DNA from: Desulfobulbaceae bacterium
Lineage (GTDB): Bacteria > Desulfobacterota > Desulfobulbia > Desulfobulbales > SURF-16
Length of the DNA stretch: 64,000 nucleotides
Reading direction: 5' to 3'
NCBI GenBank assembly: GCA_020444175.1
Contig: JAHLLM010000003.1
Location: forward strand, 74,087-138,086
Position numbers and translations under genes: made by a program. The notes below the pieces were generated by a model. It made no database searches, had not been told where the DNA came from, and worked only from the letters and a program-made list of their open reading frames with translations. Below, one piece after another: positions 5,524-45,784 of this stretch. The stretch's first letter is position 1; each line of letters starts with the position of its first letter.

Positions 5524-8163
5524 ATGAGGGGCATAAATCCGAATCCATCACGTTTCAGCAATTCATTCCTTTTTATGGACAAAAACGCCATGCATGCTCG
5601 CAGTTTTCCTGAAAAATTCCGTTATCATCCTATACCATATGTCATGGCCGCTCTGCTTATGGGATTTGTCCTCATTACCGCATACTACTCCTTTGCCGTC
5701 GGAGAACGCATGAGCAGGGAATATTCGCCCCAAATTACTGCCGCCATGAAAGCCAAACAGTATGCCACTACGGCCCATCTCTGGTTTGAAGAGGTTATCA
5801 GCGGAGACCGCACAGAAAGCATTAAAAATGTCCTGGAATTACTGTCTCAGTCAGACTGGTATGCCGGAGTCCTGCTTGAAGGGGGAGAAAACCAGACCGA
5901 AACCTATCTTCCATTGCGAAATCAAACACTAAGACAGAATGTAGAAGAGTTGCGGTCAAAAATTGCATCTTTCCGGGATATCACCACCCAGAGATGGGAA
6001 AACCAGACTATGTCGGGAATCGGTTCAGACATTGATCAGCGTTATGACCTGTTGTTTAAAAACTTTATTGCCCAGGCCGATCGTGTGGAAAACAATCTGC
6101 AGAAAATGATAAAAGAAGATCTGAAAAATTTTCGTTTAAACTCATTTATCCTGTTCATAACAAGTCTTGTCCTGGCAGCTCTCACCTTCTTGCTCTTTAT
6201 AAGACTAGAGAGGCAACGCAAATCCGACTTTATTGAAATCGCCACTGCCCGTGACAAACTTGACACAAACAGAAAACGACTGCACACGACCATGCAGTGC
6301 ATGGGTGACGCCCTCATTGCCACCGATACCCTTGGAAAAGTGACCTACATGAATCCGGTGGCTGTTTCACTCACAGGCTGGGGACAGGAGGAGGCAATCG
6401 GCCAGGATGTCCATAAAATTTTTAACATCATCAACCAACATACAAGAAAACCAGTAACAAACCCTGTTCAGGAAGTCATCCGCAAAAAAATTGTCGTCGG
6501 CCTTGCCAACCACACCGTGCTTATAGCAAAAGACGGCAGTGAATATCCTATTGCCGACAGCGGCGCCCCTATCATTGATCACAGGGGAGAATTTGTGGGA
6601 GTTGTTCTGGTATTCCATGATGTAACCGAGCAATATCAGGCCCAGGAAGCAACAGCACGGAGCGAGACGCGCTACCGGGCTCTTTTTAACGGCATGAACA
6701 GTGGAGTGTATATTCTGGAAACAAATGACAACGCCCACACCTTTACCTTTATCGATATCAACAAATCGGCGGAAAGAATTGAACAGGTAACACGAGAAAA
6801 CGTTATTGGCAAAGATATCCTGCAAATTTTCCCAGGGACAAAGGATTGCGAACTGTTTAATGCCCTAACCGGAGTATGGCAAAGTGGTCAGCCAAAACAT
6901 CTTCCTGCCGTGCACTACCAGGATGACAGAATTTCAGGATGGCGGGAAATACTGATCTACAAACTGCCCACCAATGAACTGGTGGTGCTGTCTGAAGACC
7001 TGACAGAACGAAAACGAATCGAACAGGATCTGCGTCAGGCCCAGAAAATGGAGGCAATAGGAACTCTTGCCGGCGGCATTGCCCATGATTTCAATAACAT
7101 GCTCAATGTCATCATCGGCAATGCAGAACTTGCAGATCTGGACATCCCGGACGACAGCCCTCTTCAGGAAAATATCGATGGTATTCTTCATGCCGGTATG
7201 CGGGCTGCCAACCTTGTTAAACAGATTCTTGCCTTCAGCAGACAGGAATCCAGAGATTTCAAACCCCTGCAGCTGCAGCCAGTGGTAAAAGAAGCGATGC
7301 GCCTGTTACGAGGTGTCCTGCCAACCACCATTGAAATAAAAAATGATATTGAACCTGGGGTGCAAAATATTCTCGCCAATGTTACCCAGATCCATCAGGT
7401 TATAATGAACATCTGCACCAATGCCTCCCACGCCATGCGGGAAAACGGCGGCATACTCACGGTTTCCCTGCGGGAGATTTCTCTTGATGCCACGCAAATG
7501 AAGCTCCACAAGCTTCCTCCTGGACGATATATGCAGCTCAAAATAGCCGACACGGGCTGCGGCATGAATAAGGCGACCCTTGAGCACATCTTTGAACCTT
7601 ATTTCACCACAAAGGGAATAGGCGAAGGGACAGGACTGGGGCTGGCAACCGCCCATGGCATTGTCAAAAAGCACCAGGGGAATATTGAAGTGGAAAGCGA
7701 GCCGGGCAAAGGATCAACTTTTACCATCTCCTTCCCGATCATTGCTGAAGAAAAAACACGTAAGCATGACAACAAACAAGACGGGTCCCTTGCCAGAATA
7801 GAAGGACATGTCATGCTTGTCGATGATGAAGAAACCCTTACCAGACTGGGAACAAAAATATTGGAAAGATTAGGATGTACGGTTACGGCATTTACCAGCA
7901 GCACTGAAGCTCTGAAGCACTTTACAGATCACACTTCAGACTATCAGGCCATTCTCACCGACCAGACCATGCCGAACCTGACCGGATTACAACTTGCAAA
8001 ATCCATTCATAAAATTAACCCTGGAATTCCCATCATTCTCTGTACCGGTTACAGTGATTTAGTTGACGAAAAACTCGCCAGGGACTCAGGGCTTCAGGAA
8101 TTTCTGATGAAACCCTTATCCATGAAAGAGCTTTCCGAAAAGCTGGGCAAACTGCTTTCATAA
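5524..8163 (+). CDS. Hybrid sensor histidine kinase (2 TM + periplasmic domain, PAS x2, HisKA, HATPase_c, C-terminal REC)
   Basis: H-box GGIAHDFNNML, G-boxes DTGCGM and GTGLGLA, C-terminal receiver (LVDDEE...TDQTMP). The start is uncertain, with in-frame Met at codons 18 and 23. Confidence 0.9.
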   Translation: MRGINPNPSRFSNSFLFMDKNAMHARSFPEKFRYHPIPYVMAALLMGFVLITAYYSFAVGERMSREYSPQITAAMKAKQYATTAHLWFEEVISGDRTESIKNVLELLSQSDWYAGVLLEGGENQTETYLPLRNQTLRQNVEELRSKIASFRDITTQRWENQTMSGIGSDIDQRYDLLFKNFIAQADRVENNLQKMIKEDLKNFRLNSFILFITSLVLAALTFLLFIRLERQRKSDFIEIATARDKLDTNRKRLHTTMQCMGDALIATDTLGKVTYMNPVAVSLTGWGQEEAIGQDVHKIFNIINQHTRKPVTNPVQEVIRKKIVVGLANHTVLIAKDGSEYPIADSGAPIIDHRGEFVGVVLVFHDVTEQYQAQEATARSETRYRALFNGMNSGVYILETNDNAHTFTFIDINKSAERIEQVTRENVIGKDILQIFPGTKDCELFNALTGVWQSGQPKHLPAVHYQDDRISGWREILIYKLPTNELVVLSEDLTERKRIEQDLRQAQKMEAIGTLAGGIAHDFNNMLNVIIGNAELADLDIPDDSPLQENIDGILHAGMRAANLVKQILAFSRQESRDFKPLQLQPVVKEAMRLLRGVLPTTIEIKNDIEPGVQNILANVTQIHQVIMNICTNASHAMRENGGILTVSLREISLDATQMKLHKLPPGRYMQLKIADTGCGMNKATLEHIFEPYFTTKGIGEGTGLGLATAHGIVKKHQGNIEVESEPGKGSTFTISFPIIAEEKTRKHDNKQDGSLARIEGHVMLVDDEETLTRLGTKILERLGCTVTAFTSSTEALKHFTDHTSDYQAILTDQTMPNLTGLQLAKSIHKINPGIPIILCTGYSDLVDEKLARDSGLQEFLMKPLSMKELSEKLGKLLS

Positions 8164-8247: not shown

Positions 8248-8934
8248 TTAATGCGTCATGCACTCGCCATCTTTGACGACAAGAGTGCGTCCGGCATACC
8301 CGCAATTTTCAGCATTATGCGTTACCATAATAATGGTTAAACCTTCCTCCTCATTAAGCTGCTGAAGGAGGCGCATAATTTCATCAGCTGTTTCGCTGTC
8401 AAGGTTGCCGGTGGGCTCATCGGCAAGTAAGATTGGAGGCCGATTGACAATTGCCCTGGCAATGGCGACTCTCTCCTGCTCTCCTCCGGAAAGCTGGTCA
8501 GGCAGTCTATCGGCTTTTGCCAGCAACCCGACCTTGGCAAGAACCTCCCTGGCCATCCTGTTCTGTTCTTTGGCGGCAATACCGGTTATAGCCATGGGCA
8601 TCTTGACGTTTTCCAGAACAGTGAGATAGGAAATAAGCTGAAAGGACTGAAAAATTATGCCTATATATTCACTGCGAAAATCCGCTCTCTGCTCACTGTT
8701 CAGGGCGTACACATCCAGGGTATCCACCAGAACCTCTCCCCTGCTTGGATGATTGAGTCCGCCAAGAATGGAAAGCAGTGTGCTTTTCCCTGAACCTGAT
8801 TGCCCCATGATGCCCACGAAATCACCGTCGTCCACATAAAAATCCATCTTGCGGATAGCATCCACTTTGCTGTCGGCTATCTGGTATTCTTTTCCTATAT
8901 CCCGAATTTCAATAAGGTGTTCCACTGTTTTCAT
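8248..8934 (-). CDS. ABC transporter ATP-binding protein (MacB/LolD-like)
   Basis: Walker [10 protein letters not shown], signature LSGGEQERV, Walker B ILLADEP. Start moved to MKTVEH because AGGAGA sits 5 nt upstream. Confidence 0.9.
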
Positions 8935-9007
8935 ACCATTCTCCTGCTGAGTCAGACATTCGTTGCTCAGTCCTGAGACCATAGACCTTAGTCCTCGGTC
9001 ATTGGAT

Positions 9008-10165
9008 CTACAATGCCCTTAAGGCAACACTTGGATCAAGATTACTTCCTTTCTGGGCAGGGTAGAGACTTGCCAGCAGGCTGAGGGAAATGGACAGCAA
9101 GACGGCAACCAATGCCAAGGAAAGGTTAATCCCTGCAAAACTTCCTCCGGGAGTCACAAGAGGAAGAACGGCCCAGGCAATTATGTTACCCCCTGCAACA
9201 CCCAAAATTCCGCCGAAAAATCCGACCACAATGGCTTCAAGGAGAATGATCTGCATGACATGCCCTTTTCGAAAGCCAATAGCCCGAAAAATGCCAATCT
9301 CCCGTGTCCGTTCATTGACCGCGCCCATCATGGTAACGAAAACAAGTAAAGAACCGATAAAAACGACAAGACTGGCAATGCCGAAACTGAACGCCTTGAA
9401 GAGCTCAATGGACTGCATCTTTGACATGACCGCCTGCTTTAATGCCGTCACCTTGGCGTCGGGAAATTTCTCGGCAATCTGCAGAACCATCTCGGTAATC
9501 GGGCAGTCACGGCAGAAAGCGGCGATTTCAACCATGGAAACTTTTCCTTCCTTGCCCAGCACCTTTTGCATGGCGTGAAGATCGCCAATCACAATACTGT
9601 CTTCAGTCGCCCCGGTGGGCTGCAGGATTGCGGCAACCAGAAAGGTTTCATTTGCAACCTTTAAAGAATCTCCGACGTTTAAATCCAGAGATCGCGCCGC
9701 CTCGGAACCGACAATAACATCCCCTGGACTTGCAGGAGAATTCCCCATGAGGTGCCACCATGTCTTTAACTGGAGTTCAACTTCAAAATTCACCCCCATG
9801 AACAGCACGTCACGCCCCTGGACCTGTGCGGCACCGAGCACCTTAGGTGCCACTGCCCCAAGATTGTTATTGTTCTCTATTTCACGGATACGCTCAAGAT
9901 CCTCCTCCAGAAACTCGTTCACCTCATAGCTGACACCGCCAACAGTAATGCCGCCGTAGCTCAAAGCAAGATTTTCACTTCTGGGCACCATGACGATATT
10001 AGCCCCAAAACGGTCTAACCTGTCTTCGATATCCCTGGTCATACTTTCCGTAATGGACAGCAGGGTGACAATGGTGGCAATGCCGATAAGCAGACCCATG
10101 ACGAGGAAGGTCATTTTGGCCTTTCGGCGCCTGAGATTATTAAAGGAAATATTATAGAGCTTCAA
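9008..10165 (-). CDS. ABC transporter permease, FtsX/MacB-type
   Basis: 385 aa. N-terminal TM, large periplasmic domain, then three C-terminal TM helices with the typical REIGIFRAIGF motif. Confidence 0.85.
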   Translation of the reverse strand: MKLYNISFNNLRRRKAKMTFLVMGLLIGIATIVTLLSITESMTRDIEDRLDRFGANIVMVPRSENLALSYGGITVGGVSYEVNEFLEEDLERIREIENNNNLGAVAPKVLGAAQVQGRDVLFMGVNFEVELQLKTWWHLMGNSPASPGDVIVGSEAARSLDLNVGDSLKVANETFLVAAILQPTGATEDSIVIGDLHAMQKVLGKEGKVSMVEIAAFCRDCPITEMVLQIAEKFPDAKVTALKQAVMSKMQSIELFKAFSFGIASLVVFIGSLLVFVTMMGAVNERTREIGIFRAIGFRKGHVMQIILLEAIVVGFFGGILGVAGGNIIAWAVLPLVTPGGSFAGINLSLALVAVLLSISLSLLASLYPAQKGSNLDPSVALRAL

Positions 10166-10589
10166 ATTCGGCCTCCTTTTTCAACGTCTGCATGCGCTCA
10201 CTATGACCAACCTGATTGAGCAGCACGGCCGAAACTCCCTGGCTATGGAAGAAAGTGGAGAATTTCTGCGGGTCAACTTCTGAATGATTAAAAGTAATGA
10301 TAATTCGTGATCCCTGCCCGTCAACGGCTACGTTACGGACACCCTCATACTGACGGAGCTGGGCAAGGCCGGCTTCAGACAATGAGGACTCCACCGGCAA
10401 TTTATAAATAACATCCTTAAGGTGACGCATTTGAAAAAAAGCAATGGACCTTGGAATGATAACCACGGATAGTCCAAAGACAATTGCAAGGGAGACAAAT
10501 GCCGCCAGGGCACCAAAACTAATGGAACGCTTTTTCACGCCCAGCACTTTTTCTCTTTTATCCCTGTATTTTTCAAAATCATAGGCCAT
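10152..10589 (-). CDS. Single-pass membrane protein of unknown function (operon partner of the FtsX/ABC pair)
   Basis: ORF trimmed to MAYDFEKY. One TM (FGALAAFVSLAIVFGLSVVII). Its stop overlaps the permease start by 14 nt. Confidence 0.5.
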   Translation of the reverse strand: MAYDFEKYRDKREKVLGVKKRSISFGALAAFVSLAIVFGLSVVIIPRSIAFFQMRHLKDVIYKLPVESSLSEAGLAQLRQYEGVRNVAVDGQGSRIIITFNHSEVDPQKFSTFFHSQGVSAVLLNQVGHSERMQTLKKEAEFEAL

Positions 10590-10680
10590 GTCTGCACCAT
10601 ATATTAAATTTGAGTGAGGGGTGAGGTGCGAAGAGAGAAGAATGAGCAACTTAGACTCTCACTCATCGTTTGACGACCTC

Positions 10681-11169
10681 CTACCTCTTATACTTGCAAT
10701 ACCAGCTGTTCTTGTTGATATCCGCCATGGCAATAACAAGTTTGTCTCCCTTGACAGTTCTTTCAAGGGGAGCGGGATTACAGCCACCGCGAATGACATT
10801 TATTTTGGTTGAATGAAATTTCTGACCACAGTTCAGGCAGACCATGAAATCTCCATCCTGCAGGTAGCCTTTACCTGCCTTGTAACAGACGTCACAGGCA
10901 TCAATGGCTGCTCTGATGACCCTGTCCCTGCTCATGAGGGTAAAAAATGTGACCAGGGTTCCATCACCTGCTTTCACATTAAAATGATGGGCTTTACCGT
11001 CAGTAATATTTGCCAGAGGTATTTCAAGCTGCCCGTTTACCGGGGTGATACTTTCGGTTTTCGGTCCCCAGAACATCAATTTATCCCCAAAAAAAGATGC
11101 CATGCCGCTTCCGGCAAATAATGCCAATCCCAAAACGACTGAAAGTATACCAAATCCTATTCGTTTCAC
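10681..11169 (-). CDS. DUF2318-like secreted/membrane Cys-rich protein (putative metal-binding)
   Basis: Signal/TM segment plus CDVCYKAGKGY...MVCLNCGQKF...GGCNP, the Cys pattern I associate with DUF2318 proteins. These are encoded next to FtsX-type ABC systems in iron-uptake loci. Confidence 0.6.
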   Translation of the reverse strand: MKRIGFGILSVVLGLALFAGSGMASFFGDKLMFWGPKTESITPVNGQLEIPLANITDGKAHHFNVKAGDGTLVTFFTLMSRDRVIRAAIDACDVCYKAGKGYLQDGDFMVCLNCGQKFHSTKINVIRGGCNPAPLERTVKGDKLVIAMADINKNSWYCKYKR

Positions 11170-11417
11170 TTTTGCCCTCCTTTGTTGAGGTTTTGTCCTT
11201 TTGTATTTTTGGTGCTGAAAATTTTTCTAAAAAGCTCCTTCCAGGAAGAGGCTGTCGCTCCGCATTGACTGGTCTCACAACCGATGCAGGCAAAATCCTT
11301 GTCACCTTCAGGATCTTTTTTCCCAGCATCGTCGGCAACAACGAGCTGAATATGCATAAAAAAAACAATAATTACACAACTGATCGGGATTAAAACTCTT
11401 CGTTGCTTGCGATTCAT
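11166..11417 (-). CDS. Small exported Cys-containing protein (83 aa)
   Basis: Start set at MNRKQRR, which has a GGAGG/GAGAGG SD. TM/signal segment, then ACIGCETSQCG. Its stop overlaps the DUF2318 start by 4 nt. Confidence 0.5.
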   Translation of the reverse strand: MNRKQRRVLIPISCVIIVFFMHIQLVVADDAGKKDPEGDKDFACIGCETSQCGATASSWKELFRKIFSTKNTKGQNLNKGGQK

Positions 11418-11473
11418 CCTCTCGCCTCCACACACATGAGAAAGCACCAACATTTTTATTTGATTACTTAACT

Positions 11474-11490
11474 TAGCAACCAGCGTGCCA
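11474..11490 (-). promoter_or_regulatory. Sigma-54 (-24/-12) promoter for the minus-strand small-Cys/DUF2318/FtsX-ABC operon
   Basis: The minus strand reads TGGCACGCTGGTTGCTA, a GG-N10-GC match to TGGCACG-N4-TTGCW. The -12 GC is ~59 nt upstream of the ATG at 11417. Confidence 0.7.
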
Positions 11491-12021
11491 TGAGCAGGGT
11501 AGCGCCCTCAACCTGCTGGAATGATATTCATTTTATAAAATTTTTCTTTTGGAAAATGCCTCAAAAGAGGTGTGGATTAGCGAATATTCTGCAAGCCATT
11601 AAAGATTATTCTTCAAATGTAATGATGAAGCTTTCCAGGATTTTTAGCAGCAGACAGCACTTGAAACACCTAAAAAGGCGAAAGGAGAGATGTAGATTTC
11701 ACAGAAGCATTCGGAGTGAACGCAACGCCCCAGTCGGCCAGGATAAGGAAAAACGGCAATACGAAGAGTTGTTCCCCCACAGATAGATTGCGGCGAAGTT
11801 CCATTCTGCCTCGGATGGGGAGGAGGGAGCTTCGCAGCTTGTGAATCGTTTAAGGAGAGACTTCCTGGTCAGCAAAGGCCCGTTTCATGTTAGCGACGAT
11901 CAACCAGAAGGAAATATTTCACAATCAGGCATGATATCAGGCCACTCCATCTCAACGCATTAACCCATGACCATGTCCTTATTTATCATAAACCAAGACT
12001 CTCACAATCCTGACAAACAGA

Positions 12022-12037
12022 TCAAATTGCAATTTGA
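12022..12037. promoter_or_regulatory. Perfect 16-bp palindrome, candidate operator
   Basis: TCAAATTGCAATTTGA equals its own reverse complement. It lies ~208 nt upstream of the 12245 start, in a ~790-bp divergent non-coding region. Confidence 0.35.
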
Positions 12038-12244
12038 CTTTTACTTACCCACAGCGCATAATCGATAAACAAGACATCCAGTACACGAAAAAAACAACCT
12101 CAGAAGAACAGAGTTGACAGCGGTCTCAGTGAAGAAGCTGGATTGAAGGCCTGTTTCGTGCTTTGACGGAATCATTTTACCAAATGACAAAGAAAAGGGA
12201 TTCTGCTTTTGGCACCTACGAGAGTCCCGCAAAGGAGGAATGAG

Positions 12245-13312
12245 ATGGACCCAGCTACCTTGATACCGGTTCCTGATGCTTTACCTGTCCACTGGTTTTG
12301 GTTCCAGTTACTGCTCACGGTGACGACGTTTCTCCACCTTGTCGCCATGAATATTGTGCTTGGTTCCAGCGGGCTGGCCTTTATTTCAACTTTCTCAACC
12401 GACTCAAACTCCTTGAATCTCGGCAAGGAAATCGGGCACAAACTGCCGTTCGTGCTGGCCTTTACCATTAACTTCGGTGTCGCCCCCCTTCTCTTTCTGC
12501 AAACCCTTTACGGTCAGTTCTTTTATACAAGCACCGTGCTCATGGCCTCCCTTTGGCTGTCAATTATAGGGATGCTTATTGTGACTTACTATGCTGCCTA
12601 TATTTTTCATCTCCGCTTTGACTCCCTTGCCCGTTTCCGCGCATTTTTTATCGGTCTTGCAGTTGTGCTCCTCCTTATTATCTCCTTTTTCTTTACAAAC
12701 AATATCAGCTTGATGCAGATGCCCTCGAGCTGGACGAGTTATTTTTCCAGTCCCAACGGCTGGCTTGTCAACTGGGGCGACATAACCCTTTTGCCTCGCT
12801 ACCTGCACTTTATCGTCTCCGGTTTTGCCGTGGGCAGTCTTGCCGTTGCCCTGTTATATGAGTTCAAAAAACGAAGGGGCGATGTGGCGGCCGATGCCTG
12901 GATCAAGCTCGGCTGCAAATGGTTCACTATCGGCACGGTTATAAATTTCGGCATTGGCTTCTGGTTTCTCGGCACCCTGCCCGGTTTTGCCCACGACGTA
13001 ACAACATCAGCGGGCAAACTCTTTACCATAGTGCTTTACGGTTCAGTGGCTGCCGGAGCCGTATCCGTTATCAAGGCCATGAGCAACAGGGTTGTCCCCG
13101 CGGCAATCTGGACCATGGCAACTGTATTTCTTATGGTCATAGCCCGCGACATGGTGCGGATATCCTATCTGCACCCATACCTCTCCCTGCCTGAACTTCC
13201 AGTAAAAACACAGTACTCGCCCTTTATTCTGTTTCTGATTTTCTTTGCAGGAATTGGCGCTCTTGTCTGGTGGATGCTGAAAACTGCCTGGTGTGCAAAG
13301 GAGGTGCAATAA
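12245..13312 (+). CDS. Polytopic membrane protein, likely partner subunit of the downstream CydA-like protein
   Basis: Start set at MDPATL, with AGGAGG 6 nt upstream. About 9-10 hydrophobic helices. Its stop overlaps the next start by 1 nt (TAATG). Confidence 0.55.
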   Translation: MDPATLIPVPDALPVHWFWFQLLLTVTTFLHLVAMNIVLGSSGLAFISTFSTDSNSLNLGKEIGHKLPFVLAFTINFGVAPLLFLQTLYGQFFYTSTVLMASLWLSIIGMLIVTYYAAYIFHLRFDSLARFRAFFIGLAVVLLLIISFFFTNNISLMQMPSSWTSYFSSPNGWLVNWGDITLLPRYLHFIVSGFAVGSLAVALLYEFKKRRGDVAADAWIKLGCKWFTIGTVINFGIGFWFLGTLPGFAHDVTTSAGKLFTIVLYGSVAAGAVSVIKAMSNRVVPAAIWTMATVFLMVIARDMVRISYLHPYLSLPELPVKTQYSPFILFLIFFAGIGALVWWMLKTAWCAKEVQ

Positions 13313-14604
13313 TGAATTATCCTGTCTGGCATCTTGATTTTGCAGGGGGAGGCCTGCCCATCGCCATCATGGCCATTATCCATGTTTACATCGCCCACTT
13401 TGCCGTGGGTGGCGGACTTTTTCTCGTACTCACCGAACACAAGGGACTCCGGGACAAGAGCCCAGCAATCCTTGATTATGTCAAAAAACACACCAAGTTT
13501 TTCCTCTTGCTGACCATGGTGCTTGGCAGCCTGACCGGAGTCGGCATCTGGTTCACCATCTCGGTCCTGAACCCGGCTGCAACTTCAGTCATGATCCACA
13601 CCTTTGTCTTTGCCTGGGGAGTTGAGTGGCTCTTTTTTGTGGCGGAAATTGTCTCGCTTTTTATCTACTATTACACCTTTGACAAACTCGATTCCCGCAC
13701 CCATCTCATGATTGGCTGGATTTATTTCGGAGCAGCCTGGATGTCGCTTTTTGTGATTAACGGCATTATCGACTTCATGCTGACTCCAGGGAACTGGACA
13801 GCAAACAGCAGTTTCTGGAGCGCTTTTTTTAATCCGACATTCTGGCCTGCCCTCTTTTTCCGCACCTTCCTGGCTATTATGATTGCCGGACTCTTCGGCT
13901 TTGTAACGGCCTCAGCCTTAAAAGATGAAAAACTGCGAATCTCCATGCAACGCTTTTCTGCCAGCTGGCTGCTTGTCCCCTTTATCCTCTTTATCGGCTC
14001 AGCCTGGTGGTACCGCGCCGCTCTGCCTCCACATGTTGAAGAACTCATTTTCCAGAGAATGCCGGCCATGAAGCCTTTTATTTCCTCTTTTGTTGTTTTT
14101 TCCCCGCTTCTCATCCTGGGTGGCCTCCTCATGGCCATCAAAATACCGTCAGGCGTCAGCCGGTCACTTGCCGGACTCATGCTTGTTATCGGATTGTTGT
14201 ATATGGGTACTTTCGAGTTCATCCGCGAAGGAGGCAGGAGGCCATACATTATTTATGATCATATGTATTCCACTGCCATGTTCAAGGATGATGTTGCCAA
14301 AGCCCGGACAAATGGCATTCTTGAGAGCGCAAAATGGGTTGATCGCAAAGCCCTTGCAACTGCAGACACCAGCCGCAGGGGCCAGGAGGTATTCCGCCTG
14401 CTCTGTGTGTCCTGCCACTCCATTGACGGTCCTTTAAATGATATAAAAAAGATTGCCGCCAATCTGACCCGCGCCGACCTGGAGCTGGCAACAACCTTAA
14501 TGGGCAAACAGCTTGCCTTTATGCCGCCTTTTGCCGGCAGCCAGGCGGAAAAAGATGATGTTCTTTATTATATCCACAGGACATTGCTGAACAAGCCGGA
14601 ATAA
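13312..14604 (+). CDS. Cytochrome bd superfamily (CydA-like) membrane protein fused to a C-terminal mono-haem cytochrome c domain
   Basis: By eye the N-terminal 170 aa aligns to E. coli CydA helices 1-4: HVYIAHFAVGGG vs YHFLFVPLTLG, KFFLLLTMVLGSLTGVG vs KLFGINFALGVATGL, EWLFFVAEIVSLF vs EGLMAFFLESTFV. The C-terminus carries CVSCH (CxxCH). AAGGAGG RBS upstream. Confidence 0.65.
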   Translation: MNYPVWHLDFAGGGLPIAIMAIIHVYIAHFAVGGGLFLVLTEHKGLRDKSPAILDYVKKHTKFFLLLTMVLGSLTGVGIWFTISVLNPAATSVMIHTFVFAWGVEWLFFVAEIVSLFIYYYTFDKLDSRTHLMIGWIYFGAAWMSLFVINGIIDFMLTPGNWTANSSFWSAFFNPTFWPALFFRTFLAIMIAGLFGFVTASALKDEKLRISMQRFSASWLLVPFILFIGSAWWYRAALPPHVEELIFQRMPAMKPFISSFVVFSPLLILGGLLMAIKIPSGVSRSLAGLMLVIGLLYMGTFEFIREGGRRPYIIYDHMYSTAMFKDDVAKARTNGILESAKWVDRKALATADTSRRGQEVFRLLCVSCHSIDGPLNDIKKIAANLTRADLELATTLMGKQLAFMPPFAGSQAEKDDVLYYIHRTLLNKPE

Positions 14605-14641
14605 TTCCTCTGCAGGCAGTAAAAGAGATAGTGGAAAATAT

Positions 14642-14690
14642 CGGATTGGTCGGTGCTCATGAATGTCCGACCAATCCGGATTTTGCATTT
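14642..14690 (+). terminator. Rho-independent terminator after the CydA-like operon
   Basis: Perfect 12-bp stem cggattggtcgg/ccgaccaatccg with a 13-nt loop, followed by gattttgcattt. Confidence 0.6.
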
Positions 14691-14882
14691 CCACAACAAG
14701 ACGGCTTTTTAAATCCATACTTGTCGCAATCTCCCTTTTTTTTATATATCTCCATTCCAAGGGACCTTGGATTTATTTGCTATTTGAGGCTATGAACATC
14801 ATGAAACCACTTTCTCTCCAGCTCCCTGTCCTCAGCTTTCAAAAAAACGCATTCCTTACTTTATTTTTGCTATACTAGCATC

Positions 14883-17306
14883 ATGCATGTGTATTTACGG
14901 CTCATAATTATCTTTTTCATTCCCCTGTTTGCCTTTCCTGTTTTTGCCGCTCCAAAAGGGATTCATCCCCTAATCAAAGTCGCTGTTTTCCCTCTGGAAC
15001 CTCTTAATTTTACTGATCAGAACGGGGAAGCAAAAGGACTCAATCCTGATATCATCCGCGAGATAGCGCGAGAAGAAGAATGGACTGTTGAATTTGTTCC
15101 CGGCAGCTGGGCAGAAGGACTCAGCCGTCTGCAGAGTGAAGAAATCGACCTCATGACCACCATTGCCTACTCCCCGGAACGGGCAGAGAAGATGGACTTC
15201 AGCCATGAACCAGTGACCGACATCTGGGGGCAGATTTTCACCCAGCCCGGTAAAAACATCAATACCATTCTTGATCTGAACGGGCGCCATGTCGCCATTA
15301 TGAGTCAAGATATCAATGGTCAAAACTTTATTAAAACAGCAGAAAAATTCGGCGTTGTCTGCAAAACCATCGAATTTCCCACCCATAATGCTATCTTTGA
15401 GGCCATTAAGGATGGAAAAGTCATCGCCGGTGTTGCCCCCCAGCATTTCGGACTGCGTCATGCAGCAGATTATAATCTGGTGGCAACTTCTATTCAGTTT
15501 TCTCCATTTTCAATCTACTTTGCCACCAAAAAGGGCAAAGGCCATGATATTCTCGAACACATCGACTCCCATCTTTCCAGATGGAAACAGGACAGGAATT
15601 CGTTTTATTATAAACGGCTTTCTTACTGGATGGGAGGCAAGGAATTTGAAAAACAGATTATCCCAACCTGGCTTTTAATTACATTTAGTCTCGCGCTCGC
15701 ACTCACGGCTCTGCTGTTTTTTATCAACAGAGCCCTCAATATCAAGGTACATAATCGAACAAAAGAAATTCTTTTACGGGAAAAGCAATACAGGGACCTG
15801 GTTGAGAGCGCCAACACTATTATCCTCCGATGGGACAGGGAGTGTCGTGTTCTTTTCATGAACAAATTCGGCCTGGATCTTTTTGGCTATTCGTTTGAAG
15901 AAGTCATCGGGCATCATGTCACCCACACGATCGTTCCTGCCCAAGAGTCCACTGGTAAAAGCCTCAAATTCATGATGGACGACATCTTGAAAAATCCAGA
16001 AAAATACATCCTGAACGAGAATGAGAATATCTGTAAAGACGGACGGCGTGTTTTTATCCAGTGGAGCAACAGGGTTATATATGATGATGATGGAAATTTT
16101 CAGGAAATGCTGAGTGTGGGCACGGACATAACTGACAGAAAAAGGCTTGAAACAGAACTTTTCCAGGCCCAGAAAATGGAGTCAATGGGAACACTTGCCG
16201 GGGGTGTTGCCCATGATTTTAACAATATTCTCTCGATTATCTTTGGTTATGTGGAACTCTCAAAAATCCAGAAAGAAGACCCGGACAAAGTTGCAGAAAA
16301 TCTGGAGGAAATCCTTCGGGCTGCGCAAAGAGCCCAGGCGCTGGTAAGGCAAATCCTTACTTTCAGTCGAAAAAGCGATTCAGCGAAACAGATCCTGCAG
16401 GTCTCTATTCTTGTCAAAGAAGTGCTCAAGATGCTCCACTCAACCCTGCCGGTAACCATAGAAATAAAACAAGATATTGCCTCTCACAGCACAGTCTTCG
16501 GTGATCCTACCCAGATTCACCAAGTGATCATGAATCTTTGCACCAACGCCTACCATGCCATGGAGGAAACAGGTGGCACGCTGACTGTTTCATTAAAGGA
16601 CGTTGTGATTCAGAAAGGCGATATTTCGTCCTCAGAAATAAGCATGCTTCAAGGGGAGTACATTAAGATTACAATACAGGATACAGGTTCTGGAATTAAT
16701 CCCAAAGACATACAAAAGATTTTTGAACCTTATTTCACCACCAAAGAACTCGGAAAGGGAACCGGAATGGGCCTTGCCGTGGTTCATGGTATCGTCCGCG
16801 CACATAACGGCCAAATCAAAATTGATTCTATCCCTGGAGAAGGCACAGCTTTCCATGTTTTTTTACCAATCGACAGAAATGAAGATCACTCACCCAATTC
16901 CCAAATAATAAAAAAAGAAGTCAGGGGCAACAATGAGAAGATACTTCTTGTCGATGACGAAGCCAAAATTGCCGAATCCCAGGCAAAGGTTCTGCAAGAA
17001 TACGGTTATAAAGTAGAGGTTTTTACTGATTCGACAGAAGCCCTCAAAAGGTTTAAAGAAAATCCTGACCAGTATGATATTCTTATCACCGACATGACAA
17101 TGCCCGGACTTACAGGCGTCCAGCTTTCCCAAGAAATTTTCTTACTCAAACCGGGATTTCCGATAATCATGTGGAGCGGCTTCAACAAACTCATGAACAA
17201 GGAAAAAGCAATGGAGCTCGGCATTTCGGAATATCTTCACAAACCTGTTTTAAAAGAGACACTCCTCGGCGCAGTGAGTAAGGTTCTTGTTCAAAAGACA
17301 CAATGA
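14883..17306 (+). CDS. Hybrid sensor histidine kinase with periplasmic solute-binding (SBP_bac_3-like) domain, PAS, HisKA, HATPase_c, REC
   Basis: Signal peptide plus ~230-aa periplasmic domain resembling amino-acid-binding proteins, TM, PAS, H-box [19 protein letters not shown]-terminal REC (LVDDE...TDMTMP). Confidence 0.9.
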
Positions 17307-17313
17307 TTTCTCA

Positions 17314-18663
17314 TCAAATTCCGAATTTCTCCAGCCTGTAGATGAGCACATGCCGGGGAATTTTCAGAAGCCTGGCTGCTTCCGAACGGTTGCCCTGGGA
17401 CATGGTCAATGCCTTCTGGATGAGTCCTTTTTCGACCTCTTCCAGAGAAAGCCCCTCCGGCGGGATGTCCGGTATGCCGTTTCCCGAGGCTGAAGGTCCC
17501 ACCGCCGTTCCACCTATCTGCAGTTCATCTGCCTCAATGACTTTTCCCTTGCGCAGAATAACGGAGCGCTCGACGATGTTCTGCAATTCCCGGATATTGC
17601 CCGGCCATGAATACGCTGACAGACGGGCCAGGGCGGCCTCGGAAAACCTGACGCCTGACGGAGCCTTCACTTTTTTCAAAAAATGCTCCACCAGACCGGG
17701 GATATCTTCCCGGCGTTCCCGAAGCGGCGGAAGATGGAGGGCTATGACACAGAGTCGATAATACAGGTCTTCACGGAACAGACTCTGGCTAATTAATTCC
17801 TGAAGATTTTTGTTGGTGGCGGCAATAAGCCGGACATCTATTTTTTCCGACCGGTCTGCGCCCACGGGTTCAACTTCCATCTCCTGGATCGTGCGAAGCA
17901 ATTTGGCCTGCATTTCCACTCGCAATTCCCCGATCTCATCCAGAAAAATGGTGCCGCCGGAGGCAACCTGGAATCGCCCCTTGCGGTTACTGACAGCTCC
18001 TGTAAAGGCTCCCTTGACATGCCCGAAAAGTTCACTTTCAATCAAATTTTCAGGAATTGCAGCGCAGTTAACGGCAACCATGGGGCCGGATTTTCGCGGA
18101 CTATGAAGATGAATAAGACGGGCCAGCACTTCCTTGCCTGTTCCCGATTCGCCGGTTATGAGAACCGTTGCCTCGCTGTTCGCTGCCCGCAATGCTGTAT
18201 CCAGCAGTTCAGCCATGGCAGAATTGGCCGTCTCCATACCCTCGGTGCCGGTAAGCCTGTTCACCTCGCTGGTTAACTGCTGGTGCTGTTCGCTGAGGGC
18301 TTTCACATCAAGGGCTTTCTGGCAGGCGATACGCAGAGATTCACGATCAAAGGGCTTGGGCAGGAAGGTAAAAGCCCCTTGCTGCATGGCCTTAACGGCA
18401 AGCTCTATTGAACCGAACGCCGTGATGATAATGACCGCGGTTTCCGGCGCCGCCTCCTTGATGGCAGCCAGAATTTCGAGCCCGTTCATATCCCCGAGCT
18501 GGACATCGGTAATGACAAGATCGGGATGTATTTTCTGAAACAATTCCAGCCCATCACGCCCGCAAGAGGCTGTTGTGACCTGAAAGCCCGCACTGGTCAG
18601 ATTATATTCCGTTACCCGCAGTAAACTTGCATCGTCATCTATCAATAAAAGTCGCGACTGCAT
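17314..18663 (-). CDS. Sigma-54-dependent response regulator (NtrC/AtoC-like)
   Basis: REC (LLIDDD...TDVQLGDM), GESGTGKE, GAFTGA, C-terminal HTH (NRSEAARLLKIPRHVLIYRL). Confidence 0.9.
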   Translation of the reverse strand: MQSRLLLIDDDASLLRVTEYNLTSAGFQVTTASCGRDGLELFQKIHPDLVITDVQLGDMNGLEILAAIKEAAPETAVIIITAFGSIELAVKAMQQGAFTFLPKPFDRESLRIACQKALDVKALSEQHQQLTSEVNRLTGTEGMETANSAMAELLDTALRAANSEATVLITGESGTGKEVLARLIHLHSPRKSGPMVAVNCAAIPENLIESELFGHVKGAFTGAVSNRKGRFQVASGGTIFLDEIGELRVEMQAKLLRTIQEMEVEPVGADRSEKIDVRLIAATNKNLQELISQSLFREDLYYRLCVIALHLPPLRERREDIPGLVEHFLKKVKAPSGVRFSEAALARLSAYSWPGNIRELQNIVERSVILRKGKVIEADELQIGGTAVGPSASGNGIPDIPPEGLSLEEVEKGLIQKALTMSQGNRSEAARLLKIPRHVLIYRLEKFGI

Positions 18664-18838
18664 TATTTTTTGCTCTCTCCCAGGTAGAAGGTGAAAAGTT
18701 GATGAACTCGCAAAAAGTCCGGAAGCTGATCATCCGCCAACCCAATATCAACAAGTTACACACGTTCCGGCGGTTGAGAGGATTTTCACGAAACCGTCAA
18801 AAGTTGATAAAGGGACATAAATGCGAGACCGGCAAGCG

Positions 18839-19942
18839 TTACGAATTTAAAATTGACTGATGCGGGAGAAAAACACGAAAACAGGCTCCTCCTCCCGGAT
18901 TGTCAAACACTGAGATTTCACCACCATAACTTTCTATTATTTTCCTGCTGATTAGGAGTCCCAGACCTGTTCCCTCCTCCTTGCCGGTGAAAAACGGTTC
19001 AAAAATCTTTTCCTTGTTCTCATCCGTCACACCCGGTCCATTATCACAGACATTGAGGCTGCACCCCTCATCAGAGGGCTCGATGAACACCTTTATTGTG
19101 CCATTTTCCGGAACAGAATCAAGCGCATTCAGCATAAGATTGAGAAGGACCTGGGACATGCCGCTTTGCACCTCGTGGTTACACACCGTATCAACATCAG
19201 GGAGGATTAATGTAACTTTTTTCTGCTGCACCTGCCTCTCAACAAGAGCACTGACGTGGGCGATTATTTCTGCAAAAGGCTCCCGTTCCTCTTTTTTTTC
19301 CGCAACGCCTTTTTGCCGGGAAAAACGAAGGACTTCTTCCACGGTGTTGTTTAAGCGATTCGTCTCCTTTAAGAGGATATCGGTAAATTCCCTTTTCGGA
19401 TGCCCTTCGGGAAATTCATCCAGAAGTATTTCCGCCGTTCCCCTAATCGAGCTGAGTGGATTCTTGATTTCATGGGCAAGGGAGGCGGAAAGTTTGCCAA
19501 GTGCGGAGAGCTTTTGGGCAACAGCCAGTTGTTTTTCCGCCTCAATGAGCTGTTCTGTCTCATCATGCAACCGGGCATATGACTTCTGCAATTTCTCAGA
19601 AAGCTGCCTGTATTTATCCCGTAGACGCGTCTCACGCCCGGCGATGACGCCAGTCACAAGACCTGCGGCAATATAGAGGACAATCTCCGTCATTTCACTG
19701 ATATATGCCCCAGGGCCATGACTGATAAAAAGGAGGACATGGGGAATAAAGGCAATTGACGACAGCAAAGCCAAGGTCAAGCCTCCCCGCACCCCGAACC
19801 AGATGGCGCCGAGTACGATGGGGAAATAACTGAGCCTGCGATAGGTATTATGAAAAAAAATGTATTCCCCTGGGGTGAAAAAATGCAACAGGCCAATAAC
19901 TATGACCACAACAATGAGTGACACAAAAAGCGTTTTGCGCAT
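18839..19942 (-). CDS. Membrane sensor histidine kinase (4-5 TM N-terminal sensor, HisKA, HATPase_c)
   Basis: H-box SASLAHEIKNPLSSI, N-box LLNLMLNALDS, G-boxes DNGPGV and GTGLGLL. Lies upstream of, and co-oriented with, the 17314-18663 regulator. Confidence 0.85.
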   Translation of the reverse strand: MRKTLFVSLIVVVIVIGLLHFFTPGEYIFFHNTYRRLSYFPIVLGAIWFGVRGGLTLALLSSIAFIPHVLLFISHGPGAYISEMTEIVLYIAAGLVTGVIAGRETRLRDKYRQLSEKLQKSYARLHDETEQLIEAEKQLAVAQKLSALGKLSASLAHEIKNPLSSIRGTAEILLDEFPEGHPKREFTDILLKETNRLNNTVEEVLRFSRQKGVAEKKEEREPFAEIIAHVSALVERQVQQKKVTLILPDVDTVCNHEVQSGMSQVLLNLMLNALDSVPENGTIKVFIEPSDEGCSLNVCDNGPGVTDENKEKIFEPFFTGKEEGTGLGLLISRKIIESYGGEISVFDNPGGGACFRVFLPHQSILNS

Positions 19943-20066: not shown

Positions 20067-21611
20067 TTAATCAAAAACAGGCACGGAAGGAAAGAGCGAT
20101 GTGTCGGTATGGGGAATAAAACGGGAGCCGGAAAACCGAATCATGAATTCCTGGTTCACATTGAGCTCCAGATAGGTAATTTTGGCAATCAGCTCCTGGC
20201 AGCGCTCCCTGTTGTGCCGATCGAGCAAAACCAGCTCCGCTCCAGCCAGTGAACTGTTGCCAATGGGCTGAAAGACTCCTATGTCAAGATCGGGAAGCAT
20301 GCCGAGAGTGATGGCCTGACGCGGATCAATATGCCTGCCAAAGGCTCCGGCTACAAAAATACGATGCAGATCGGCAAACTCCAGACCTACCTGATTGATA
20401 AGCGTTGTCAGTATCGAATACATGGCAGCCTTTGAACGCATCATGGCATCAAGATCCACCTGCGCCAAAACAACCGGCTCCCCCTGGTCTGCCTCATCGG
20501 CATCCGCCACCACAAAGCCAAGGCCGTCACCGGTGTCAATAAAACGGTCAGGACATGTCTCCTTTTTAAATTTCCCCCGTATATCAATGATGCGGGAGAG
20601 GTAAAAAGCCGCCACCAGATCAATAATACCGGAACCGCAAATCCCTCTGGGCTTGCCGCCGTCAATGGTCCTGTACTTGAGTTCCAGGGTACGGGGGTCA
20701 ATGGTGACATGCTCAATGGCGCCAGGTCCGGCGCGCATACCCATGCGGGCCACCCCTCCCTCAAGGGCGGGGCCTGCCGCTCCGGCACAGGCGATGAGCC
20801 ACTCACTGTTGCCCAGAACGACCTCTGCATTTGTCCCCACATCGATGAGCATGCATGTTTCCTGCTGCTCATCCAGACGGCTTGCCAGTATGCCGGATAT
20901 CAGATCGCCCCCGAAATAACTGCCGATACTGGGCATGATCCAGACCGGGGCCGCAGGATGAATGAGAAGACCGACAGCACCTGCCTGGCAAGGGTCGGGA
21001 CTGTTAACCAAAGGGATATATGGCTCTCGGCAGAGATAATAGGGATTCAAATTTAAGAAAAGATGCACCATGGTGGTGTTGCCGCTCACAGACAGAGCTC
21101 GAATTTTCTGTCGCGCAACACCGGCCTGCAAGGCAAGATCTTCAGCCAGATCATTAATAGTTGCGACAATGGAGTTGTGCAGCCGTGACAAACCATCATC
21201 TTTTACTGCAAAATGAATGCGGCTGAGAATATCTGCGCCATACTCAATCTGGCTGTTTTCACGATTTGCCCTGGTGAGAATCTTTCCATCCAGCAAGTTG
21301 ACAAGGCTTGCTTCAAGATGCGTTGTCCCCAGATCAAGAGCCATGGCGGGTAGGACCGAGCACGGCTCCTCCTGGAAATCAACAAGCAGAGGGCCGTTCG
21401 GCATGTCATTGACAAAGGCGGTTCCCTTAAACTGTGCTTTTCGGAAATTTTGCGCCACCTCGGCCATCCGCTCCAGAGGAATAGCGGGCATGATTCTGCT
21501 TTTCGCAAAAATTGCTTTTTTCAACCGGTCAAGATCACCGGTGTTATCCTGCAGGCTTGGCGGATTGGCTTCAACATCAATGGTGTAAACAAATGAAGGC
21601 ATAATAAACAA
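20067..21611 (-). CDS. ASKHA-fold ATPase, DUF4445/RACo-like (no ferredoxin domain)
   Basis: The phosphate-1-like ALDLGTTHLEASL and the DVGTNAE / GAAGPALEGG motifs are typical of the C-terminal ASKHA domain of corrinoid reductive activators. There is no N-terminal Cys cluster. Confidence 0.55.
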   Translation of the reverse strand: MFIMPSFVYTIDVEANPPSLQDNTGDLDRLKKAIFAKSRIMPAIPLERMAEVAQNFRKAQFKGTAFVNDMPNGPLLVDFQEEPCSVLPAMALDLGTTHLEASLVNLLDGKILTRANRENSQIEYGADILSRIHFAVKDDGLSRLHNSIVATINDLAEDLALQAGVARQKIRALSVSGNTTMVHLFLNLNPYYLCREPYIPLVNSPDPCQAGAVGLLIHPAAPVWIMPSIGSYFGGDLISGILASRLDEQQETCMLIDVGTNAEVVLGNSEWLIACAGAAGPALEGGVARMGMRAGPGAIEHVTIDPRTLELKYRTIDGGKPRGICGSGIIDLVAAFYLSRIIDIRGKFKKETCPDRFIDTGDGLGFVVADADEADQGEPVVLAQVDLDAMMRSKAAMYSILTTLINQVGLEFADLHRIFVAGAFGRHIDPRQAITLGMLPDLDIGVFQPIGNSSLAGAELVLLDRHNRERCQELIAKITYLELNVNQEFMIRFSGSRFIPHTDTSLFPSVPVFD

Positions 21612-28775: not shown

Positions 28776-29213
28776 GTCAGGATTGACTTCCTTTGATCTC
28801 AAAAACGAAAATACGCCACTTGTTTCCCATTCGAAGTTCTTCTTTAAGGGCAACACCTCTCCCTAAACTCCTGGAACCTCTATCAGTCTGTTGAAAAACA
28901 GACAAAAAGATGACATCCCTTGTGATTTTTTCTCCAATAACGCATAATTTTATTAACTCAGTGCAGTTTCAAATCGATATCATTCTCGGACTTTACGTTA
29001 AAGCTTTCGCCTTTAACCTCTCCAAGACAGGTTAAACAGACAGGCTTTATAAGAGTACAAAGCATGCAAAACGAACAAAGCAAAGGCCAGCCTCTAAAGA
29101 CTATATCCCTATGGTCCGACTGAACTACGAAAAATACGGAGATGAAGTCGGACTTCTCCTCCATGGGGAGAGTGATGAGAAAAGCCCATTTGGTCAATAA
29201 CGGAGTGATCTGA

Positions 29214-32135: not shown

Positions 32136-32159
32136 TCTGTTAATCTTAACCGTTCTTCT

Positions 32160-32363
32160 TTAAAGGCAGCCGCACATCTGCTCGAAATTCTCACACTCAT
32201 TTCGATTTTCAAAGGGACACACTTCTTTTTGGAACCATTGGAGTTTTGGGCACCAGAAGCGCCTTTTAAAGGGTTCGTTACACCCCTTTTTGGAGAGCTT
32301 CTGTCTTTTTCTATTACCATGATGCACCATATTTTCCTGAATCGTAAATCTCCATAATGCCAT
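32160..32363 (-). CDS. Small 67-aa Cys-rich protein
   Basis: Strong SD (AAGGAGG, 7 nt before the ATG at 32363). MALWRFTIQENMVHHGNRKRQKLSKKGCNEPFKRRFWCPKLQWFQKEVCPFENRNECENFEQMCGCL has six Cys. No family recognised. Confidence 0.45.
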   Translation of the reverse strand: MALWRFTIQENMVHHGNRKRQKLSKKGCNEPFKRRFWCPKLQWFQKEVCPFENRNECENFEQMCGCL

Positions 32364-32958
32364 TTCAGTTCCTCCTTTTTCGTCAGTCCAACTTACAAAA
32401 AGAATTTTGACGGAGAAAAAATGAGCTCGCTGGCCCATATGGTTACTGGTAAATACTCCTCTTTTAAACGATTACGCCCGCAACTCCTGACTTACACTTA
32501 TGCCGGAACCCCTCCCAGCGAGTTCAAATCATCTTTATGTGGTAATTTTGCAAATTTCAGACCACACACAACCTCCAGACAGAGAACACTTTTCATATCA
32601 GCAGGTTACCCACCAAAAAAGAAAACTGGAAACATTTTAACAGTCGACAATAAGGGTTATTTGCCCCTTCCCCCTCTCTTTTGTCAAACACCATAATGCC
32701 GCCGTTATATGAAAAGAAAGGTCGACTTTGTTGCTGCCAGACGCACTCCTCCTCAAAATTTTTTTTCCATAAAACCCGGATGTTAATGTTGACATCCTAA
32801 AGCCTATCAATTAAAAGTTTATAATATTGTGCCACAAAATAGTATCTCTTCGGCAAAATTGAAGAATAGTAAAAAAGGAATATTTTTTTCATGTATTACG
32901 CATCAACGCTTTAGAATCCCTACTAATTTTCATACAAACAAAAGAGGTATTCTTTACT

Positions 32959-34713: not shown

Positions 34714-34772
34714 CTGTTACCCAAAACATCAACCTAAATTGAAATGATAGTTTCTTATTTAGGAGAAAAAAA

Positions 34773-45435: not shown

Positions 45436-45784
45436 CTTTGGGCCTCTTGGAGACAACAACCGGGGAGTTGCGTTGAACAAGCATCTCCCCCTTATCAAAA
45501 TAATTCCCCAGATAAAACCTCAGTATTATCGGTACCGACACCGGGTACGCAGTTGCATAATCAACCATTTCTTTTCACTTCGGCCAATTAATTAAGAGCC
45601 ATCGAGATCACCAGCAACTTCACTCTCTTTTTGCTAAAACCGCAATAATCAGTTACAAAAGAGGGGAAGTGACAAACTCTCATCTCGTTAAGCCGGATGG
45701 CAGCATATTGCAAATTGCATAATACTCCTTGCGAGCTATATTTTGTACACCAGATGCACTCAAACAGCCTCCCCAGACACCACC

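Follow-up and report, generated by a model that had tools for sequence, protein, structure and literature searches.

A two-gene operon in the window

The stretch of DNA analysed here (the window) comprises 64,000 nucleotides of the Desulfobulbaceae bacterium contig JAHLLM010000003.1. Two same-strand open reading frames in the window's ORF list, ORF A and ORF B, occupy positions 12245-14604. ORF B encodes a CydA-like membrane protein with a C-terminal cytochrome c domain, and ORF A encodes its predicted membrane partner. The two very probably constitute an OR-C1a/OR-C1b pair—a kind of cytochrome bd relative that is already known and named—and we read them, with moderate confidence, as a cytochrome c-dependent, bd-type O2 reductase. 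The locus contains the following elements (aa, amino acids):

12034..12062, + strand: candidate sigma-70-like promoter, TTGACT, 17 bases, CATAAT (10/12 matches; ~180 bases 5' of ORF A)
12232..12238, + strand: Shine-Dalgarno sequence AAGGAGG of ORF A (read directly; 6 bases before the ATG at 12245)
12245..13312, + strand: ORF A, 355 aa, an OR-C1b-type CydA paralogue with nine predicted helices; H31 and H188 kept, L103 and M110 in place of the channel glutamates
13300..13314, + strand: GGAGG (13300-13304), then the TAATG stop/start overlap (read directly)
13312..14235, + strand: ORF B residues 1-308, a predicted eight-helix CydA-like core with H24, E105, E112, H131, S145 and E306, F183 for His186, and no Q-loop
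14344..14604, + strand: ORF B residues ~345-430 and stop codon, a predicted periplasmic class I cytochrome c domain
14404-14418, + strand: haem c motif C365-V-S-C368-H369
14640..14690, + strand: imperfect hairpin ATCGGATTGGTCGG ... CCGACCAATCCGGAT, then TTTTGCATTT (read directly; the inner part, 14665-14681, is in the consensus listing)

The A of ORF B's ATG (13312) is the final base of ORF A's TAA stop codon, and the resulting TAATG makes translational coupling of the two genes plausible. An earlier note, made from the letters of the window and its ORF list, had proposed such coupling and had placed the two ORFs at these same positions. The N-termini of homologues (MDP.. and MNYP..) agree with both chosen start codons. 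On the 3' side, the hairpin starts 36 bases past the ORF B stop codon, is followed by a T-rich run, and is probably a terminator; the gene that follows begins at 14883 and encodes a hybrid PAS histidine kinase. On the 5' side, the neighbouring genes (encoding an FtrD-like protein and a MacB/FtsX ABC transporter) are divergent. ORF A and ORF B therefore form a two-gene operon. The promoter is a weak candidate, because promoter and terminator consensus sites in this region are no more numerous than in shuffled sequences. A search of positions 11100-15000 against Rfam gave no match.

Proteins identical to the two products have been deposited as 'MAG: cytochrome ubiquinol oxidase subunit I [Desulfobulbaceae bacterium]' and 'hypothetical protein KQH63_02380 [Desulfobulbaceae bacterium]'. 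The first of these public names is misleading, for the reasons given below, and the partner is merely 'hypothetical'.

ORF B and its family

Three comparisons place ORF B (430 aa) inside the CydA family. Firstly, residues 17-207 match positions 6-202 of 418 in the Pfam profile Cyt_bd_oxida_I (PF01654; E=1.6e-13, 50.5 bits, with the Pfam cut-off at 26.2 bits); only the N-terminal half of the profile is matched. Secondly, a profile of 25 ORF B relatives matches Geobacillus CydA (5doq_A, E=5.4e-9), with a second matched stretch in which FEFIREGGRRPY is aligned with GWYLAEVGRQPW (conditional E=2.8e-4). Thirdly, when the predicted AlphaFold structure (mean predicted local distance difference test score, pLDDT, 79) is searched with Foldseek, the top ten PDB matches are all CydA chains (E 1.7e-6 to 1e-4). 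Both the model and the hydropathy profile show eight helices, after which comes a soluble domain of ~120 residues. Because the loop between helices 6 and 7, at the place of the Q-loop, is only ~13 residues long in the model, ORF B is predicted to have no Q-loop.

The conservation of functionally important CydA residues was assessed in the window sequence together with 81 sequences from species-level genomes (n=82):

E. coli CydA His19: ORF B H24, kept in 81/82
E. coli CydA Glu99: ORF B E105, kept in 82/82
E. coli CydA Glu107: ORF B E112, kept in 82/82 (six residues between E105 and E112)
E. coli CydA His126: ORF B H131, kept in 82/82
E. coli CydA Ser140: ORF B S145, kept in 82/82
E. coli CydA His186: ORF B F183, Phe in 79/82

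The family alignment contains no equivalent of Met393 in ORF B and no conserved Met at the start of helix 7. After helix 8, the invariant segment FEFIR-E306-GGRRPY aligns with the E-x-G-R-Q-P-W motif of Glu445; the same register is seen against E445 of E. coli CydA, in an alignment that is non-significant alone. From these alignments, ORF B appears to retain the Glu445 motif as E306.

The soluble domain carries the single CxxCH of ORF B (residues 365-369). In the alignment of relatives, C365xxCH369 and M404 (in an MPPF motif) are invariant, and M404 is the probable distal haem c ligand. The domain matches Cytochrome_CBB3 (PF13442) just under the cut-off (E=4e-5) and is similar to class I cytochromes c, in particular to the second haem domain of actinobacterial QcrC. 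The N-terminus of CydA is periplasmic; given this topology and an even number of helices, the cytochrome c tail of ORF B would lie in the periplasm. One relative, P0090 (478 aa), is longer by an insertion of ~50 residues where the membrane core joins the cytochrome c domain (alignment columns ~350-400), which repeats a 'YDYxYSN' segment found after helix 8.

From the residues kept and lost, we infer that ORF B retains the two-haem active-site scaffold, while haem b558 and the quinol site have been replaced by the fused haem c. The earlier note had aligned ORF B by eye with CydA helices 1-4, including the helix-1 His and the two helix-3 Glu, and had described a C-terminal CxxCH domain and no long Q-loop; each of these points holds, and the profile search it proposed returned a CydA-family match. 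Its list of haem ligands to be checked is only partly recovered: equivalents of His19 and Glu99 are present, but those of His186 and Met393 are absent.

The combination of a CydA core, a haem c tail and no quinol site has been named. Murali, Gennis and Hemp (2021; bioRxiv 10.1101/2021.01.16.426971) divide the superfamily into qOR, OR-C and OR-N. In their description, OR-C1a is a CydA of eight helices that lacks the quinol site and carries haem c in a C-terminal periplasmic portion, and OR-C1b is its adjacent paralogue; 'b'-type subunits are without Glu99 and Glu107, and His19 is kept in all paralogues. The OR-C1a row of their Supplementary Table 6 lists F183, H24, E105, E112, S145, H131, Y119, Y121 and W80, with '-' at the Glu445 position. 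ORF B has the same residues, with the same numbers, as this reference row. Their Supplementary Table 7 lists OR-C1a proteins with one to eight haems and, beside them, many haem-free 'hypothetical protein' OR-C1b (e.g., in D. vulgaris DP4 and Desulforhopalus). The same table includes an eight-haem OR-C1a of Desulfogranum mediterraneum on G494DRAFT_scaffold00007.7; our octahaem locus L038 (eight CxxCH; strain DSM 13871) is on that scaffold, and ORF B is 58% identical to its product. Cytochrome c is the OR-C electron donor proposed by these authors (Murali et al., 2021), and the OR-C classification is still quoted in papers from 2024-2026. By residues and architecture, we are highly confident that ORF B and ORF A belong to the OR-C1a and OR-C1b families.

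Relatives were found in at least 545 species-level genomes, 80 of which were kept for analysis; these are almost all Desulfobulbales and Desulfobacterales. In 65/84 loci, OR-C1a is a protein of 845-891 aa with eight CxxCH motifs (e.g., L045:6001-8559, L011, L033 and L038), the extra C-terminal half of which matches MtrC/MtrF domain II/IV and cytochrome c7. In a neighbour-joining tree built from the membrane part (no bootstrap), the one-haem forms of 425-433 residues, including that of the window, make up one clade nested among the octahaem forms, which suggests that the multihaem extension was lost secondarily in this clade. We also considered ORF B as a truncated gene, and rejected this: 425-433-residue forms with a conserved C-terminus constitute a whole clade, and dominate the metagenomic matches. 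Directly 3' of the octahaem OR-C1a gene in 19 loci (L022:8692-9306 and 18 others) lies a gene for a conserved membrane protein of ~200 aa without a Pfam match.

ORF A, the partner subunit

Among the related loci with upstream sequence, the partner gene lies directly upstream of the ORF B relative in 77/78; the flanking genes are otherwise not conserved. OR-C1b-OR-C1a is thus a conserved gene pair. The sole locus with upstream sequence but without the partner gene is L084:3551-5186, where two rubrerythrin/ferritin-like ORFs precede an octahaem OR-C1a.

As a single sequence, ORF A gave no match in Pfam, NCBIfam or PDB—PF02322, the CydB family, included—and a 139-sequence ORF A profile gave only spurious low-complexity matches against PDB. 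The ORF A family contains 1773 cluster representatives at E<=0.001. Aligned with hhalign, 139 ORF A representatives match the ORF B family across 271 columns that span helices 1-8 (probability 93%, E=3e-7). A deep alignment is needed to see this, as a shallow alignment of 27 ORF A sequences reaches merely E=0.005.

The predicted structure of ORF A (pLDDT 81; predicted template modelling score 0.81) has nine long helices, of which the ninth (residues 324-350) is strongly hydrophobic (pLDDT 64-81), and a short helix 6-7 loop. In Foldseek the model matches both CydA- and CydB-type chains (9r2g_D, 1.6e-4; 9r2g_A, 4e-4; 5doq_B, 1.1e-3), and the two types score about equally. Given the significant alignment with ORF B and the cytochrome bd matches of the model, ORF A is, by alignment and predicted fold, a diverged CydA paralogue that stands in the place of CydB. 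The earlier note's description of the partner as not CydB-looking is right inasmuch as no Pfam, NCBIfam or PDB sequence match was found, but the partner is not unrelated: it is a CydA paralogue, and its model fits cytochrome bd subunits. Direct hhalign comparisons of ORF A with E. coli CydA or CydB, or with small alignments of canonical CydA or CydB from related loci, are non-significant (E 0.02-0.4), as is that with Desulfocapsa CydA; against E. coli CydB, the values are E=0.099 over 29 columns and E=0.37 (true CydB genes in the relatives' loci score 7e-67). These comparisons therefore cannot place ORF A nearer to CydA or to CydB.

The hhalign alignment pairs ORF A with ORF B at several positions of interest: (i) H31 with H24 (the His19 position), (ii) L103 and M110 with E105 and E112, (iii) H188 with F183 (the His186 position), and (iv) R301 and R305 with E302 and E306. 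The pairings of H31 with His19 and of H188 with His186 recur in independent alignments of ORF A with E. coli CydA, each of which is non-significant. Across the family, the positions facing E105 and E112 are aromatic/Pro and aliphatic, and Glu is never among the five commonest residues at either. Since L103 and M110 occupy these positions in the alignment, the proton-channel glutamates are read as lost in ORF A. Other residues are nearly invariant among the ORF A representatives:

ORF A H31: 139/139
ORF A H188: 138/139
ORF A M297: 136/139
ORF A R301: 138/139
ORF A R305: 135/139

The near-invariance of H31, H188 and M297 suggests that ORF A, unlike CydB, may bind haem. A more specific arrangement is tentative and, we think, rather unlikely: ORF A would hold one or two b haems via H31 and via H188 with M297, the latter being a b558-like His/Met site that the paralogue has taken over. 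Electrons would then enter the complex by two routes, or the complex would be a bd-fold menaquinol:cytochrome c oxidoreductase or a dual-donor oxidase. If true, b haems in ORF A would be a haem arrangement undescribed for any member of the superfamily.

Proposed function and known systems

Family membership, architecture, conserved residues and the conservation of the gene pair are direct observations; the bound haems, the electron donor and O2 as the substrate are what a functional reading must add. The reading that we favour, somewhat more than all others, is that ORF A and ORF B form a cytochrome c-dependent, bd-type O2 reductase. The O2 role is proposed because (i) the channel residues E105, E112, H131 and S145 are invariant (82/82), (ii) canonical cydAB adjoins the pair in 9-11 loci, and (iii) rubrerythrin-like ORFs lie upstream in L084. 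In the cydAB-adjacent loci (L047, L051, L053, L056, L062, L063, L065, L068, L069, L070 and L082), cydA-cydB is divergent from the pair, on the minus strand at ~0.8-4.8 kb of each locus, and has a full-length PF01654 match and PF02322; in seven loci, a gene for an Rrf2 regulator precedes cydAB, between it and the pair. This adjacency lends modest support to an O2- or oxidative-stress-linked role.

In such an enzyme, a periplasmic c-type cytochrome would reduce the fused haem c of ORF B, which would hand electrons on to two haems in the membrane core. The ligands of this haem pair would be the axial His, H24, and, as a probable second ligand, E306, which lies in an E-x-G-R-x-P-Y motif at the position of Glu445. 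O2 would be reduced to water at the core haems, with cytoplasmic protons arriving via E105, E112, H131 and S145. ORF A, as an ancient duplicate of ORF B, would fill the place of CydB and complete a pseudo-symmetric dimer. In a Desulfobulbaceae bacterium that is otherwise anaerobic, the enzyme would consume O2 and help to build the membrane potential. The suggestion in the earlier note that electrons are exchanged with a periplasmic cytochrome, rather than drawn from quinol in the classical manner, is consistent with the c-type fusion and the missing Q-loop.

Several points weigh against this proposal. O2 reduction is extrapolated from distant qOR relatives (~15% identity), and multihaem c subunits also occur in many deltaproteobacterial membrane complexes that are not oxidases. 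The link from ORF A to canonical CydA and CydB runs by transitivity through ORF B, and through the predicted fold. The neighbours of the operon in the window (kinases and an ABC transporter) give no tie to O2, and neither canonical cydAB, nor rrf2, nor the gene for the ~200-residue downstream protein was found within the 64 kb of the window. The alignment of E306 with Glu445 conflicts with the '-' in Supplementary Table 6 of Murali et al. (2021). Finally, an incomplete literature search found no biochemical study of OR-C, and no purified or assayed OR-C enzyme; the earlier note had supposed as much of this class, which had itself already been named in 2021.

Of the alternatives, the one that fares best, although we consider it unlikely, is that the pair is an electron-transfer module instead of an oxidase. 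Like Qrc or alternative complex III, it would link the menaquinone pool and the periplasm's pool of cytochrome c, with electrons flowing either way, and a b558-like haem in ORF A (H188 with M297) would sit on the quinone side. The near-invariant H31, M297 and His at the His186 position of ORF A fit such a role, as do the eight c haems of most relatives, in MtrC/MtrF-like and c7-like domains that are typical of Desulfobacterota periplasmic electron conduits; Murali et al. (2021) likewise call many c haems typical of deltaproteobacterial membrane complexes. However, neither subunit has a Q-loop or known quinol-site residues, and the helix 6-7 loop is short in both. Moreover, the invariance of E105, E112, H131, S145 and E306, together with H24, is difficult to account for unless a buried haem hosts chemistry that consumes protons, and the adjacency of cydAB in some genomes fits an O2 role.

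Less likely again is that the bd-type haem reduces another small oxidant (nitric oxide [NO], H2O2 or peroxynitrite), in a periplasm-fed detoxification and not in respiration. Peroxidase activity and the handling of NO are known from canonical cytochrome bd, and the NO sensor NsrR is one of the Rrf2 regulators; the Rrf2-family gene between cydAB and the pair in seven loci, and the rubrerythrin-like genes of L084, could be read in this way. Yet conservation falls on the residues of the O2-reducing site and of its proton channel, and the stress-related context is confined to a minority of loci that does not include the window.

An ordinary quinol-oxidising cytochrome bd with a divergent CydB—as the NCBI and JGI names of ORF B and its relatives imply, and as the matches of the ORF A model to CydB chains might allow—is very improbable: only the N-terminal half of the CydA profile is matched, His186 is replaced by Phe in 79/82, neither a Met393 equivalent nor a Q-loop is present, and ORF A has no PF02322 match and aligns significantly with ORF B, not CydB. 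The annotated quinol oxidase function is contradicted by the features tested (Q-loop, His186/Met393 and PF02322 all missing).

If ORF A and ORF B are indeed a cytochrome c-dependent O2 reductase, OR-C would add to the haem-copper oxidases a third, structurally unrelated route from c-type cytochromes to O2, and one that is widespread in sulfate reducers and other 'anaerobes' of oxic-anoxic boundaries. At 430 and 355 residues, the one-haem form and its partner are the smallest version of the system, and are practical for heterologous expression, spectroscopy and cryo-electron microscopy. The conserved His and Met of the partner, and the apparently retained Glu445 motif, are concrete targets for mutagenesis.

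The remainder of the window has features of its own. The divergent operon upstream of ORF A (8248-11453, minus strand) comprises a small Cys-containing ORF (11166-11453), genes for an FtrD-like membrane iron-sulfur protein (PF10080), a 165-aa protein of unknown family and a MacB/FtsX permease, and an ABC ATPase gene; the pairing of FtrD-like with MacB is unusual. The window is rich in hybrid PAS histidine kinases (at least five) and has two sigma-54 activators (5524-8163, 14883-17306, 17314-19942 and 26214-36152). Its G+C content falls to 0.38-0.40 at ~32-38 kb, over a kinase/activator pair and the start of a gene for a subtilase-FG-GAP protein (37386-39938). A RACo-type reductive activator of corrinoid proteins (20067-21611, minus strand) and an 808-aa U32 peptidase-family protein (45743-48169) are also encoded; we draw no link between either and ORF A/ORF B.

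The pair can be compared with four known systems. With canonical CydAB (qOR1 to qOR3; E. coli 6RKO, Geobacillus 5DOQ), ORF A and ORF B share the predicted fold of both subunits, the oxygen-reduction core of helices 1-4 (axial His and the two proton-channel Glu included), an M-x-x-P motif after helix 4, an E-x-G-R-x-P-(W/Y) motif after helix 8, and the pseudo-symmetric two-subunit arrangement. They differ in that the Q-loop and the subunit I ligands of b558 are absent from ORF B, where a fused cytochrome c would replace the quinol entry site, and in that subunit II is CydB (PF02322) in the canonical enzyme and here a CydA paralogue with conserved His and Met. No CydX- or CydS-like small ORF was recognised near ORF A/ORF B.

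CydAA' of Caldivirga maquilingensis (qOR4a/qOR4b) is likewise a heterodimer of two CydA paralogues. Its qOR4b, like ORF A, has kept His19 but no longer has the proton channel, and it has been suggested that it may hold an additional haem; at the His186 position, however, qOR4b has Ala where ORF A has His. The Caldivirga CydA (qOR4a) differs from ORF B in that it is archaeal, oxidises quinol, keeps His186 and Met393, and is without a cytochrome c domain. The OR-N proteins ('bd-like' oxidases of Nitrospirota and Nitrospinota) are also without the quinol site, occur as paralogue pairs and are uncharacterised, with cytochrome c or other donors proposed. They differ in having 10-14 helices, a mostly kept His186, no fused haem c, and operons with PetABD-like or other donor modules.

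The closest system is OR-C1, as presented in the available parts of Murali et al. (2021). The window pair departs from it in four respects: (i) it is a one-haem short form, where 65/84 close relatives have eight haems; (ii) nine helices are predicted in ORF A, against eight reported for OR-C1b, a count that is descriptive and not diagnostic; (iii) E306 occupies, in the present alignment, the Glu445 position given as '-' for OR-C1a; and (iv) a His is conserved here at the His186 position of OR-C1b, of which those parts of the preprint make no mention. Like OR-C1a, ORF B has a CydA-like part of eight helices, a CxxCH domain at the C-terminus that is predicted to be periplasmic, equivalents of His19, Glu99 and Glu107 with the shorter, Geobacillus-type six-residue Glu spacing, no quinol site, and Phe at the His186 position. 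ORF A, like OR-C1b, is an adjacent CydA paralogue with His19 and without the channel glutamates, and OR-C1 is common, as here, in the Desulfobacterota.

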